Source of the DNA: Eubacteriales bacterium
GTDB taxonomy: Bacteria; Bacillota; Clostridia; Oscillospirales; CAG-382
DNA: 64,000 bases
Direction of reading: 5' to 3'
Assembly (NCBI GenBank): GCA_028705495.1
Contig: JAQWDK010000001.1
Span: 159,228 to 223,227, forward strand
Under the pieces are notes generated by a model, which saw nothing but the letters and a program-made list of their open reading frames with translations, searched no databases and was not told the origin of the DNA. This document shows positions 59,568 to 64,000 of the stretch, one piece after another. Every line of letters starts with the position of its first letter. Within the stretch, counting starts at the first letter, position 1. The translations under genes and the position numbers were made by a program.

Positions 59568-59607
59568 AACAGTTAGCGGCGGTGTGAAAGCATCGCCGCT
59601 AACTGTT
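59568..59607. terminator. Perfect 14-bp hairpin; A-tract upstream, no T-tract downstream
   Basis: aacagttagcggcg (59568-59581) / cgccgctaactgtt (59594-59607). On the minus strand it would read as a canonical intrinsic terminator. Confidence 0.4.
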
Positions 59608-59622
59608 GCGAATGGAGTTTAT

Positions 59623-60234
59623 ATGGACGAAGAAAAAAGGTATGCCGACACCTATGAGATTATCCACTCTTTCAAAATCGGAAGAACGGAAGTTGTCATC
59701 GGTGAGGATCAAAAAAAAACCGAAAATCAGTATATTGTTGCCAACTACGAAGATAACGGAATCATCGGCAGGTATTTTGATGTTGTAGGAAGTGAAGATT
59801 ATGCAGAAATTGTAGCCATTTATTCAACGAGAATTACCATTGAAGCAACGAAAGTCCGTGATGAAAACGAGGTTAAAATTGCAGGCTATGACAGTACGCT
59901 TATCGGTCTTGATAGGTGCGATAAAACTACTTGGGAGGACGATATTTACGACAAAATCATTGTTATCAAGCCCACTTCCCTGAGAAGAGAGTTTCGCACT
60001 CCTTTGCACCAATTAAAAGTCGTAACTGGCGGTTTCGGTGCCTCTGCAAAATCCAGAGGTCAGTCAGTTTTTTGCAAAGACTTGTTTACCAGCAAGGTTA
60101 CAAGATATGACCGCACTGATGTTCTCGGCACCATTGAAAAAGATAATCTTCCGATGTGGGCAAAAACATTTATAAAAGAAAACGAGAAAAAGATTGAGAT
60201 AAAGAAGTCTCCGACTTCGAGGGTGGAGCGATGA
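59623..60234 (+). CDS. Hypothetical protein (element-associated)
   Basis: ATG 59623 follows AATGGAG. The track start at 59584 lies inside the hairpin. Confidence 0.5.
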   Translation: MDEEKRYADTYEIIHSFKIGRTEVVIGEDQKKTENQYIVANYEDNGIIGRYFDVVGSEDYAEIVAIYSTRITIEATKVRDENEVKIAGYDSTLIGLDRCDKTTWEDDIYDKIIVIKPTSLRREFRTPLHQLKVVTGGFGASAKSRGQSVFCKDLFTSKVTRYDRTDVLGTIEKDNLPMWAKTFIKENEKKIEIKKSPTSRVER

Positions 60235-60282
60235 ATGTAAAAAGTGAGGTGAACCGAAATGTACGAAGACGAATTCAACGAA

Positions 60283-60420
60283 TATGAAAACAACGGCGAA
60301 GACTGTATCATAAGGTTCACCAAAGAACAATATGATGAAATCGTGACTCTTGCCTTAGATTGCGGTTTGAGTGTCAAAGAGCTTATTTTTCATCGATTAT
60401 TCGGTAGCATGGAATTGTAA
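60283..60420 (+). CDS. Possible 45-aa ribbon-helix-helix-like protein
   Basis: MKTTAKDCIIRFTKEQYDEIVTLALDCGLSVKELIFHRL has the beta-strand/helix/helix pattern of MobC/CopG-type proteins. It is below the ORF-track size cut-off. Confidence 0.3.
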   Translation, partial: YENNGEDCIIRFTKEQYDEIVTLALDCGLSVKELIFHRLFGSMEL

Positions 60421-60428
60421 AGGAGCAG

Positions 60429-61382
60429 ATGCAAATGGAATTACGAGCAATGACACCCACAGAGCGTATGTATATATATGCTCAAAGTTCGCAAATCAGC
60501 AGACAGACGGGACTGATCGGACACCTTCGTGCCGATATGGATACTGACGGTCAAGGCTTTTTCTCCACTTGGTTTGATTACCGCAAAGACCTTAAAACAG
60601 ACTCGTTTAAGACAGAGTTTGACGAGGTTATGGATGCTTGCCGATTTAGTGACAAATACGGGCACATGCTTGGTGATAGAGAGCTGATGAAGCGGTATTG
60701 TTGCGATCATCCTGATGCCGGGTTTGAAGGTAGCTGCACCACTATATACGGCTTCCGCATAGATACGGATAACTTTGCTTATCTGTTACGGCTAAACCCT
60801 CAAAAGGGTGATTATAACCTGTACTGCTACTGCTACCGTAGAGATTGGCTTGACAGCCATCTGCAAAAAGCCGAGCGAGGTATTCTCTTTATTACCCCAA
60901 ATTATGATGAGAAGTTTCGTATTTTAGACGGAGATAAAGTTCGTGTGACTTATTATGACGGCGAAACCAAAGACTACACTTGTAGATATATCGACGATTA
61001 TCACGTGGAGGTCGGAGATAACCTTTATCATATTTGCGAGCTTGCCGAGCGTATGGAGCAAAACGGAAACAAGGTTATACCTCTTCGTTCTTCTTTGCCT
61101 GAACAGTGCTATTCCACGCTTGCCACATCAAAGGAAATTATCATCTTAAAGCGTGGCGAATCAGGATATTACAGAACGGATATTGAGTATCAGAACCAAG
61201 AGGAATCGAGAAAAATCGTTGATGCTTGCAACGCAGAGCTTGGCGTTACGAAAGCACAAGAGGAAGCAATGAAAGCCGGTTCGATGTTCGGCTTTGAAGT
61301 TCCCGGCGCTGATCCTAAAAACTACAACGATAACGGAAAGCCACTGAAGCTGAAACATAAAGACAGAGATGATGTTAGATGA
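60429..61382 (+). CDS. Hypothetical protein (element-associated)
   Basis: A 317-aa ORF. I cannot name a family with confidence. Confidence 0.5.
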   Translation: MQMELRAMTPTERMYIYAQSSQISRQTGLIGHLRADMDTDGQGFFSTWFDYRKDLKTDSFKTEFDEVMDACRFSDKYGHMLGDRELMKRYCCDHPDAGFEGSCTTIYGFRIDTDNFAYLLRLNPQKGDYNLYCYCYRRDWLDSHLQKAERGILFITPNYDEKFRILDGDKVRVTYYDGETKDYTCRYIDDYHVEVGDNLYHICELAERMEQNGNKVIPLRSSLPEQCYSTLATSKEIIILKRGESGYYRTDIEYQNQEESRKIVDACNAELGVTKAQEEAMKAGSMFGFEVPGADPKNYNDNGKPLKLKHKDRDDVR

Positions 61383-61525
61383 TTGACACTTGTGTTTGCT
61401 ATGGTGAAATTGTATCGGAAGGCAGAATGGTATGCCCAAAATGCGAAACCTCTGACGAAAGGAGCGATGTTGATGTCGAAGAAAAAATACGTGATCTGGA
61501 GCAACGCAGATCTAAATGTCAATGA
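61379..61525 (+). CDS. Possible 48-aa zinc-ribbon protein
   Basis: MIDTCVCYGEIVSEGRMVCPKCE... Its ATG shares an ATGA overlap with the upstream stop. It overlaps the next gene's start. Confidence 0.3.
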   Translation: MIDTCVCYGEIVSEGRMVCPKCETSDERSDVDVEEKIRDLEQRRSKCQ

Positions 61526-62048
61526 AGAATGGATAGATGCTTACAAGGAGCATCTTGAAATCAATGACCGAAAAATTCCTAAAGAAATTTTCGATGATGA
61601 TGTTTACGAATTTATGTATGATACCAATTCGGATTACCTTGACGATGAGCGTAGCAATCTGAACATTCAGCTAACCCGTCCTATTATTGTAATCGGAGAT
61701 TTAGGACTGTGGAATGGTCGAAGGATGGGATACAAAGAAATCTCAAGCGGAAATATCCGGGATTGTCTTTATTCCGAATGTGACTACAACACTTGGTATA
61801 TCGACAAACAGGGCGATCTTTGTTGTGAAGCGATCCATCACGACGGAACAAACTTTTACACCTACCGAGCCATTCGCACCGATGCAACCGAAGCTCAAAT
61901 TGAGAACCTGAAAGACAAGCTTTACCATGGGACGGCAACAAGGTCGGACATTACCCGTAGTACTGTCCGTCTTGGTGATGAAATCGGTAAGGCTTACGGT
62001 TGGGAGATCAGTGGAAGAAAACCTGCTGAAAAAAGCTGTGCAAGATAG
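61473..62048 (+). CDS. Hypothetical protein (element-associated)
   Basis: ATG 61473 (MSKKKYVIWSN...) follows AAAGGAG, so it is shorter than the track ORF. Confidence 0.5.
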   Translation: MSKKKYVIWSNADLNVNEEWIDAYKEHLEINDRKIPKEIFDDDVYEFMYDTNSDYLDDERSNLNIQLTRPIIVIGDLGLWNGRRMGYKEISSGNIRDCLYSECDYNTWYIDKQGDLCCEAIHHDGTNFYTYRAIRTDATEAQIENLKDKLYHGTATRSDITRSTVRLGDEIGKAYGWEISGRKPAEKSCAR

Positions 62049-62096
62049 AGGGGCTAAGTTTTTAAAGATAAATTTTCTATCATGAAGTTTTTTTAC

Positions 62097-62121
62097 TTCG
62101 CGCCGGGTAGAATGGCGCGAA
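62097..62121. other. GC-rich hairpin in AT-rich intergenic gap
   Basis: ttcgcgcc-gggtagaat-ggcgcgaa has an 8-bp stem. Confidence 0.25.
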
Positions 62122-62181
62122 TCGCAAAGGACGCGACCGAAACAAGTTTACAACTTAACATTGAAAGGAATGGTCATATAA

Positions 62182-64000
62182 TTGGCAAATAAACTGCAAA
62201 TAACAACGGCAGTATGCGAGGAACAAATGCATGAAGTCTGCCAAAATGCAGATAGTTGGATGCGTTTCCTGACAACTGCCGCTAACAACTACAAGTACCG
62301 TTTCAAAGACCAGATTTTGATTTATGCTCAGAAACCTAATGCAACCGCTTGTGCTGAAATCGAGACTTGGAACAAGCTCGGTCGATGGATAAACAAAGGC
62401 ACACGAGGCATTGCGCTTCTTATTGACTGTGATGTTCAGTACCGATTGCGACACGTATTCGATATTGCAGATACCAATAGTTATTACGGAAACAATGTGA
62501 TGCTTTGGCTGATGAATGAGCGATACGAAAGTATGGTTACAGAAGCTCTTATCAACAGCTTTGGCGAGATTGAAAGTGACAGGCACTTTACTGAGGTTCT
62601 TATCAGTACTGCTGAAAATGTAGTAATGGACAATATTCCCGATTACCTTGAACAACTAAAAGCTGCAAAAGGGACGAGTTTTTTAAGTGACCTTGACGAT
62701 TTTAATATTGAAGTGGTTTTCAAGAAAACGCTTGTAAACAGCGTTGCTTTCATGTTGATTGAGCGTTGCGGTTTTGAAGGAAAAGAGTTCTTTGGTCACG
62801 ATGCTTTTTCCGAATTGTATCAGTTCTGTTCTTCTGAAACAGTTTCTGTTTTGGGCGGTGCCGCAAGCGACATTTCCGAAATGGTTTTGCGTGAAATAGC
62901 CGAAACGGTAAAGATTGCAGAGCGACAGGAGAAATCGACAAATTACACATTTGCAAATCCTCCCTCAAAAAAGGATAATATAATCACAAATAAAGAAAGC
63001 GAAAGGAGCGGACAAAATGAATATCACTTACACGAATCAGGGAGATTACCAGATACCCGACCTGACAGTACCCGAAAGCCCGAATGGAATTGGGAAGTAT
63101 GGGATGCTACGCCGGACATTTCTCAGAGACCACAAGGACGGTCTTTACACCGGGATGCTGATGACGAACAAGCTGAACGATCACCTTCAGGTGATAGACA
63201 GACAGGCAACCGAGATGATGGAGGAGCTGACAGCGAGACTGTCGAAGCTTCAGGGAGTGAGCGAGAAGCTCAAGGGCGAGGACCAGATGCGTTGGGTTCA
63301 GTTAATGAACAACATTCGCAATCAAGCCGAAGAAACAGTCCTAAAGGAGATAGTTTACCGTTAAGCGGTTTTACCGATTATTTCCGAACTGAGGTTGACT
63401 ATTTTCACGAAGATGCAGAAAAAAACGAGTTAATACGAAACTGCCCACAACTAAATGACCACAGAGTAGAGATTGCCACATTCTTTAAGTCGCAAAGCGA
63501 CAACAAAGAGCGTGGCAACTTCTTACGGTCGTTTTTCGATGAGAAGCCATATCAGACTACGCTTTCAAACGGTTTGGGTACAGGCTTTAAGGCATACAGC
63601 GACTGTATTCATTTGTGGTGTGGAGTAAGCTTTGATACAAGAGAAAAAGATGCTATTTACCGTTGGGAACACCTTGCTAACCGTGTCTACGGAATGATGC
63701 TGATTCGAGAGTGGCTGGAAGAAAACGAACCTGTTCTCCTTACTGAAGATGAACAGATACAGTTTATAGAGAATAACAGTAAACTAAAAAGTCAGGAATT
63801 TTCAATACCACAGGAAGCCATTGACTATGTGCTGATAAAAGGAAGCGGTATTTCGCAAGGTAAATTCCGTATTTACGAGCAGATTTCCAAGAAAGAAACC
63901 ACAGATAAGAATATAGATTTTTTAAAAGGTGAATACGGCATGGGTGGCAGTAGTGATGCAATTCCTGGTACAGGTTATTGGGTAAACTACGATGCTAAAG
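62182..64000 (+). CDS. Large open frame, partial: ArdC-N-like ssDNA-binding domain followed by polyvalent-protein-type domains (runs off window)
   Basis: There is no stop from TTG 62182 to 64000; I checked each codon to 63369. WMRFLTTAANNYKYRFKDQILIYAQKPNATACAEIETWNKLGRWINKGTRGIALL resembles ArdC N-terminal domains. The frame is not in the ORF track because it has no stop in the window. Confidence 0.6.
   Translation, partial: MANKLQITTAVCEEQMHEVCQNADSWMRFLTTAANNYKYRFKDQILIYAQKPNATACAEIETWNKLGRWINKGTRGIALLIDCDVQYRLRHVFDIADTNSYYGNNVMLWLMNERYESMVTEALINSFGEIESDRHFTEVLISTAENVVMDNIPDYLEQLKAAKGTSFLSDLDDFNIEVVFKKTLVNSVAFMLIERCGFEGKEFFGHDAFSELYQFCSSETVSVLGGAASDISEMVLREIAETVKIAERQEKSTNYTFANPPSKKDNIITNKESERSGQNEYHLHESGRLPDTRPDSTRKPEWNWEVWDATPDISQRPQGRSLHRDADDEQAERSPSGDRQTGNRDDGGADSETVEASGSEREAQGRGPDALGSVNEQHSQSSRRNSPKGDSLPLSGFTDYFRTEVDYFHEDAEKNELIRNCPQLNDHRVEIATFFKSQSDNKERGNFLRSFFDEKPYQTTLSNGLGTGFKAYSDCIHLWCGVSFDTREKDAIYRWEHLANRVYGMMLIREWLEENEPVLLTEDEQIQFIENNSKLKSQEFSIPQEAIDYVLIKGSGISQGKFRIYEQISKKETTDKNIDFLKGEYGMGGSSDAIPGTGYWVNYDAK
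63017..63364 (+). CDS. tnpV: TnpV-family transposon-associated protein
   Basis: MNITYTNQGDYQIPDLTVPE...IGKYGMLRRTFLRDHKDGLY...MRWVQLMNNIRNQAEETVLKEIVYR matches the TnpV pattern known from Tn4451-type elements. It has its own RBS (GAAAGGAG) and is visibly GC-richer than its flanks. Confidence 0.8.
   Translation: MNITYTNQGDYQIPDLTVPESPNGIGKYGMLRRTFLRDHKDGLYTGMLMTNKLNDHLQVIDRQATEMMEELTARLSKLQGVSEKLKGEDQMRWVQLMNNIRNQAEETVLKEIVYR

Follow-up and report, generated by a model that had tools for sequence, protein, structure and literature searches.

The window analysed here, a stretch of 64,000 nucleotides from an Eubacteriales bacterium (GenBank assembly GCA_028705495.1, contig JAQWDK010000001.1, positions 159,228 to 223,227 of the forward strand), ends inside a giant gene that harbours a complete tnpV gene in another frame of the same strand. 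As an earlier note on this DNA had reported, the frame opening with TTG at 62182 contains no stop codon up to the window end. This amounts to 606 codons within the window (62182–64000, plus strand), and the open reading frame (ORF) continues past it to coordinate 70035 in the contig, giving 2617 codons in total (G000:C6:221409-229262). The nested tnpV gene lies at 63017–63364 on the plus strand, comprises 115 codons followed by TAA, and is read in frame +1 with respect to the giant gene. The putative dual-coding segment (63016–63366, plus strand) corresponds to codons 279–395 of the latter.

The assignment of the nested ORF to the TnpV family, made in the same note, proved correct. Its product matches PF14198 over the full length of the profile (positions 1–111 of 111), scoring 139.6 bits (cut-off 27) with an E-value of 5e-41; it also matches phrog_24764 (E 3e-38), while no TnpV model was matched in NCBIfam. 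The gene has its own ribosome binding site, a Shine–Dalgarno (SD) sequence GAAAGGAG at 63001–63008 on the plus strand, 8 nt before the ATG. GC content rises to 0.50–0.55 across 63000–63400, compared with ~0.40 in the flanks. The AlphaFold2 (AF2) model of TnpV, with a predicted local distance difference test (pLDDT) score of 87, consists of a beta-hairpin followed by helices.

An AF2 model of residues 1–520 of the giant protein, built from a 20-sequence alignment, places the overlap between two folded parts. Residues 1–256 (62182–62949, plus strand) form an N-terminal domain (hereafter N domain; pLDDT ~90), residues 257–410 (62950–63411, plus strand) a predicted disordered linker (pLDDT ~30) that holds the whole tnpV overlap, and residues 411–514 (63412–63723, plus strand) the first folded domain past the linker, of alpha/beta type (pLDDT ~85). 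Across tnpV, the long frame indeed reads as the low-complexity string that had been described: R, D, S, G, E, P, Q and T account for 73% of the residues and hydrophobic residues for 12%, compared with 44% and 34%, respectively, in the rest of the giant protein. Past the overlap, the long frame lacks an in-frame start codon for 69 codons, close to the 70 estimated previously, and the next one is found at codon 464.

The first ~270 codons had been labelled as an ArdC-N-type domain, a label that was weakly supported in our analyses. The Pfam ArdcN family (PF08401) scored 17.2 bits (E 0.006–0.03), which is below its cut-off of 22.6, and matched residues 27–80 only. On the positive side, the top matches in the Protein Data Bank (PDB) when the AF2 model was compared using Foldseek were structures of ArdC of R388 (6i89 and 6sna), with a probability of 1.0, an E-value of 6e-3 and template modelling (TM) scores of 0.38–0.40. 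The HExxH motif of the C-terminal metalloprotease of ArdC was not found in residues 1–278 of the giant protein, and none of the conserved N-domain columns of the 20-sequence alignment held an invariant His or Glu. We consider the ArdC-like label plausible, short of a clean family membership. Further downstream, Pfam detected an Eco57I-like methylase (residues ~1137–1297), SNF2/ResIII (1790–1987) and Helicase_C (2241–2314) in the full protein. The ORF thus combines an Eco57I-like methylase, SNF2/ResIII, Helicase_C and an ArdC-like N domain within 2617 amino acids, the features by which we recognise a polyvalent protein. A protein search using the first 620 residues retrieved 2587 homologous giant proteins from public data, and the best 120 of these span at least 85% of the query region, linker included (at least 95% in all but one). 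Many of the giant homologues carry precomputed annotations for PF01624 (MutS_I), PF28553 (WH_1), PF28554 (DUF8437) and PF28555 (Helicase_dom); the last three are new families, and none of the four was reported for the protein of the window by our local copy of Pfam.

Similar nested pairs occur elsewhere in the same genome. It contains four tnpV copies, three of which lie after a homologue of the N domain and before a homologue of the helicase. The three nested TnpVs are 42–46% identical, and the long frame is open in all of them (2476, 2617 and 2782 codons). Besides the gene of the window, these are a giant gene of 2476 codons at G000:C6:110608-118038 (minus strand) and another of 2782 codons at G000:C40:98842-107190, both located outside the window. 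Given these three diverged giant-gene copies, the genome has three related conjugative elements. The fourth tnpV (C35:26302-26637) stands alone, and each of its two other frames is interrupted by stops.

When one genome per species was scanned with a pattern, 35 tnpV loci were obtained. The four closest ones, including that of Coprococcus catus, are nested in ORFs of 2389–2801 codons, and the remaining loci are free-standing. As a sign of a three-gene ancestor, we looked for N-domain or helicase genes in the flanks of stand-alone tnpV genes and found none within 10 kb; judged by eye, the neighbours were Mob relaxases, serine recombinases and sigma factors. Of 400 Clostridia genomes searched for the N domain, 68 contained it, representing 56 of 217 genera, and it nearly always lay within open frames of 2000–3900 codons. 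In 29 of 30 N-domain loci from Clostridia, tnpV follows immediately and without exception in frame +1; the long frame is open across it in 28 of them. In the single nested copy with a stop (L048), one C>T substitution generates a TGA in the long frame while leaving the tnpV codon synonymous (CCC>CCT). At the locus without tnpV (L060), an insertion bearing an integrase truncates the giant gene. The arrangement also extends to more distant relatives, with N domains 25–36% identical, 18 of 20 of which have a nested TnpV homologue. With the exception of L078 (G303:C68) and L084 (G132:C2), where an ordinary short linker joins the N domain to the next domain in a single protein and there is no +1 ORF, the nested state was found throughout the sampled N-domain family. 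Since these two relatives sit on opposite sides of the deepest split in the N-domain tree, the absence of tnpV from them suggests two independent losses.

A further sample based on a hidden Markov model (HMM) search of 401 Bacillota genomes gave 35 full-length tnpV copies. The N domain was located upstream in 17 of the 17 copies without a stop in the alternative frame, and in none of the 18 copies with 3–14 such stops. We also observed the nested arrangement on plasmids of Bacilli (Cohnella and Virgibacillus). Both frames are intact in ~70 related elements across Firmicutes, represented by independent assemblies, isolates and plasmids.

The earlier note had left to shuffling the question of how often an off-frame would stay open by chance. 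In the long frame, a stop is created whenever the third position of a tnpV codon is T and the next codon begins with AA, AG or GA. The window tnpV has 36 codons beginning in this way, none of which is preceded by T (0/36), although T occupies 19 of the 79 other third positions. When synonymous codons of this gene were permuted, the long frame stayed open in 0.14% of 20000 trials (p = 0.0014), and when they were resampled with the codon usage of the giant gene itself it was open in 0 of 20000. Extending the count to 48 nested copies, a class partly defined by its open frame, T was found at 0 of 1792 stop-prone sites and at 16% of the other third positions. In contrast, 27 stand-alone copies have T at 243 of 987 stop-prone sites, which amounts to 2–16 stops per gene. 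The definition is free of this circularity only in the 30 Clostridia loci, the 20 distant relatives and the HMM-based Bacillota sample, where copies were classified by the upstream N domain. GC content at third codon positions (GC3) is 0.63 in nested and 0.47 in free copies, and this higher GC3 explains the GC bump over the overlap. The open long frame across tnpV is not due to chance.

Substitutions between related copies distinguish the two readings. We analysed 649 substitutions in 14 phylogenetically independent close pairs of nested copies. Changes that are synonymous in TnpV and nonsynonymous in the linker were in excess (observed/expected 2.17), whereas those nonsynonymous in TnpV were depleted, both when synonymous in the linker (0.60) and when nonsynonymous in the two frames alike (0.63). 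Overall, TnpV-synonymous changes occurred at 2.2–3.1 times the expectation and TnpV-nonsynonymous changes at 0.6 times. TnpV is under purifying selection. For the linker frame, identity between nested pairs with a TnpV identity below 60% (mean 39%) was 0.236, compared with 0.214 under a null in which synonymous codons were resampled without creating stops. The amino-acid sequence of the linker thus evolves almost neutrally, and apart from the need to stay open, the long frame is under no strong constraint in this region. Two residues, E274 and R275, are nearly invariant in the linker alignment; the SD of tnpV is read as E-R-S in the long frame, and the near-invariant linker 'ER' and 'EQ' are by-products of this SD and of the conserved MNN motif of TnpV, respectively. 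The initiation signals themselves are preserved: GAAAGGA(G/A) is kept 7–10 nt before the ATG in nearly all of the 48 nested copies, while the sequence between the two varies, and stand-alone TnpVs begin at a Met equivalent to the start of the nested copies.

Having established the anatomy, conservation, statistics and selection pattern of the segment, we regard it as highly probable that 63016–63366 is dual-coding, with a linker of the giant gene in frame 0 and TnpV in frame +1, forming a same-strand nested gene pair. According to the mechanism that we propose, ribosomes starting at 62182 would read frame 0 across the segment and yield the linker, so that the ArdC-like domain would be followed by a ~150-residue disordered linker and by the methylase–SNF2 helicase body of a 2617-residue polyvalent protein of an integrative conjugative element. 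Other ribosomes would initiate at the internal SD and ATG and make a compact, folded TnpV of 115 residues; judging from the signals in the sequence, such independent internal initiation is the most likely source of TnpV. Selection on the pair is asymmetric, conserving the amino-acid sequence of TnpV and requiring the linker reading only to be stop-free and hydrophilic. Because the long frame must stay free of stops, tnpV codons beginning with AA, AG or GA are not preceded by T, and GC3 is higher. The arrangement would presumably allow TnpV and the establishment protein to be produced from a single mRNA.

Several points weigh against this interpretation. Production of the two proteins is deduced from conservation, and any biological reason for the embedding is speculative. 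Searching the PDB with the TnpV model using Foldseek returned nothing better than an E-value of 5, the listed proteins being unrelated, and a profile search of PDB sequences with TnpV gave no match. Promoter and terminator scans of 61900–64000 returned as many sites as in shuffled sequence. To these must be added the partial circularity in the definition of the nested class.

A different explanation would be programmed +1 frameshifting or transcriptional slippage, producing a fusion of ~392 residues between the N domain and TnpV, in which TnpV would be an alternative C-terminus instead of, or besides, an independent protein. In line with this, ~25 in-frame N-domain–TnpV proteins of 391–399 amino acids appear among the 120 best short N-domain matches in public sets, and the internal SD could in principle stimulate frameshifting. 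However, the fusion junctions are scattered, lying before the SD or at around residue 22, 45, 50 or 60 of TnpV, even among near-identical elements, and the single fusion locus examined turned out to be a giant gene broken into four ORFs. We therefore rejected these proteins as evidence of programmed frameshifting; they look like sporadic indels or pseudogenes. Three near-identical fusions from different assemblies (P0131, P0139 and P0145) have three different frame-switch positions, which could be explained by indels arising repeatedly in one element or by errors of assembly. The earlier note had seen no slippery heptamer for a TnpV fusion, and in the 48 nested copies we likewise found that the stretch from the SD to the ATG holds no slippery sequence that is conserved. 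Stand-alone TnpVs begin at the equivalent Met, which also speaks against a frameshift. We assign this explanation a very low probability.

It could also be that only one of the readings is functional, tnpV being an untranslated relic or, conversely, the long frame being unread and its flanks separate proteins. The annotation visible in five public records, which shows one of the two genes in each case, fits such a view. A relic, however, would be expected to lack the frame-specific purifying selection observed here (ratios of 0.6 vs 2.2), full-length HMM matches at 40% identity and a conserved SD and ATG. An unread long frame, for its part, would not remain stop-free at 1792 stop-prone sites, and the part downstream of the overlap has no start codon of its own. 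We consider this option improbable. The idea raised previously that three originally separate genes had lost their stop and start signals fails for related reasons, since ~70 diverged copies keep the two frames and purifying selection acts on TnpV. Likewise, a sequencing or assembly indel that fused separate genes in the contig was an a priori possibility taken from the earlier note and nothing more; given that the same frame relation is seen in the three diverged copies of the source genome and in ~70 copies (dozens of independent assemblies, as well as isolates and plasmids), its probability is negligible. The remaining proposal, truly overlapping genes arising by insertion of tnpV into a linker, held in part: the genes do overlap and the long frame is selected to be stop-free, but insertion into a pre-existing linker is unsupported, because nesting is seen across the whole N-domain family as sampled, and L078 and L084 look like independent losses.

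With respect to the origin of the nested pair, tnpV may have been captured by read-through or born by overprinting on the linker. In TnpV trees, most free copies group in one clade and nested copies in another, although three free copies are placed among the nested ones, which means that escape from nesting has happened in at least some cases. These trees have no outgroup and were rooted at the midpoint only, and one unrooted branch separates the main stand-alone and nested clades. As a tentative scenario, to which we give a rather low probability, the whole TnpV family could have originated by overprinting of the disordered linker, the free tnpV genes of Tn4451-type mobilisable transposons being escapes. 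The nested state throughout the sampled N-domain family with two apparent losses, the three stand-alone copies within the nested clade and a linker reading without sequence constraint of its own would all fit such a birth. Nevertheless, the trees are equally compatible with the opposite direction. In a related and likewise tentative reading, TnpV might be an obligate partner of the giant protein, the embedding ensuring that the two are inherited and expressed together.

Same-strand nested genes are a known kind of arrangement. Within Rz of phage lambda, a small host gene, Rz1 is likewise a complete +1-frame gene wholly contained in a larger one on the same strand. Each gene has its own start, and in the phage both products are functional and are known partners in one machine. 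The tnpV host differs in being a multidomain gene of 2617 codons, of which the overlapped part encodes a disordered linker without sequence constraint. The comS gene in srfAB of Bacillus subtilis is similar in another respect: a small regulatory gene lies out of frame in a giant multidomain Firmicute gene and uses an internal start on the same mRNA. However, comS, with 46 codons, has a narrow taxonomic range and its overlap falls on a folded enzymatic domain, whereas tnpV, with 115 codons, is part of a Pfam family whose members also occur as free genes, and is nested in both Clostridia and Bacilli. We know of few long, fully nested, same-strand gene pairs in bacteria with solid evolutionary support. 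The tnpV case is a new and very well supported member of this known kind.

Members of the TnpV family had been described as free genes in Tn4451/Tn4453 and Tn6104–6106, with a postulated Xis-like role (PMC3158075). They share with the window copy the full-length HMM match and a location on mobile elements beside DNA-transfer functions. Tn4451-type copies are free-standing next to large serine recombinases and Mob relaxases and contain 2–16 stops in the alternative frame, unlike the nested copy of the window. The structural comparison with the PDB using Foldseek and the profile search of PDB sequences gave no support for an Xis-like role of TnpV. As for the host gene, polyvalent proteins of conjugative elements (Iyer et al, 2017; PMC5512222) unite a methylase–helicase dyad acting on DNA with an anti-restriction module of ArdC type in one giant multidomain protein; the giant protein of the window likewise has such a dyad, together with a plausible ArdC-like module. 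As the terms TnpV, overlapping, frameshift and linker do not occur in that paper, the nested gene falls outside the published description of polyvalent proteins. Neither did we find a description of the nested tnpV arrangement in the searchable literature.

In each of the five public records examined, the visible annotation displays only one member of the pair. In an NCBI record of a metagenome-assembled genome, a gene of 2791 amino acids is called and the nested tnpV is not. The same is true for a Virgibacillus plasmid (L131, NZ_CP033047.1), where the Prokaryotic Genome Annotation Pipeline (PGAP) called only an 'SNF2-related protein'. On plasmids of Cohnella (L091, NZ_CP051681.1) and Monoglobus (L092, NZ_OY725736.1), PGAP called a 'TnpV protein' and the giant ORF is not in the PLSDB gene table, which omits pseudogenes, even though the frame is open across tnpV. 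An additional 'hypothetical protein' that L091 shows on the minus strand, overlapping the N domain, is probably spurious. In the annotation of L129 (CAYBJM010000006.1), only one of the two overlapping genes is visible. It is tnpV that is missing from Prodigal-type calls and from some PGAP records, where the giant gene is retained. Provided that these few records are representative, both the number of TnpVs counted in the mobile elements of gut microbes and the annotation of polyvalent proteins there may be biased.

The arrangement is widespread, as the N domain is present in about one-sixth of Clostridia genomes (68/400) and nested copies are also found on plasmids of Bacilli. It offers a clean natural case of asymmetric dual coding, in which a folded protein is set against a disordered linker that need only be stop-free. 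Nesting leaves a simple codon signature, namely the lack of T before codons beginning with AA, AG or GA. In addition, the link between the widespread TnpV and the establishment/anti-restriction module of conjugative elements provides a concrete lead to its function.

Finally, we considered the start of the giant gene and the region upstream. The likely translation start (62163–62184, plus strand) comprises an SD-like sequence, GAAAGGAA, at 62163–62170 and the TTG at 62182–62184. A stop immediately precedes the opening of the frame at 62182, and the first Met of homologues (e.g., MANK.. or MAAKY..) aligns with this start. A sigma-70-like promoter match (11/12; TTAACA, a 16-nt spacer and TATAAT) was located at 62155–62182, with the last base of its −10 box coinciding with the first T of the TTG at 62182. 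A real promoter at this position would count against 62182 as the start; the match is probably due to chance, since promoter-like sites are as numerous in the region as in shuffled sequence. Some 60 nt upstream of the start, at 62098–62122, there is a stem-loop with a GC-rich stem of 8–9 bp (TTCGCGCC...GGCGCGAA); no T-run follows the stem, its fold z-score is only −1.6, and it may be nothing. An Rfam scan of 60000–64000 gave no match at E ≤ 0.1, and the three larger ORFs that precede the giant gene (59584–62048) were without a Pfam match. A 53-codon ORF at 60259–60420 showed a weak match, below the cut-off, to the relaxosome accessory protein NikA (E 2e-4), and this neighbour provides a conjugative-element context for the giant gene.

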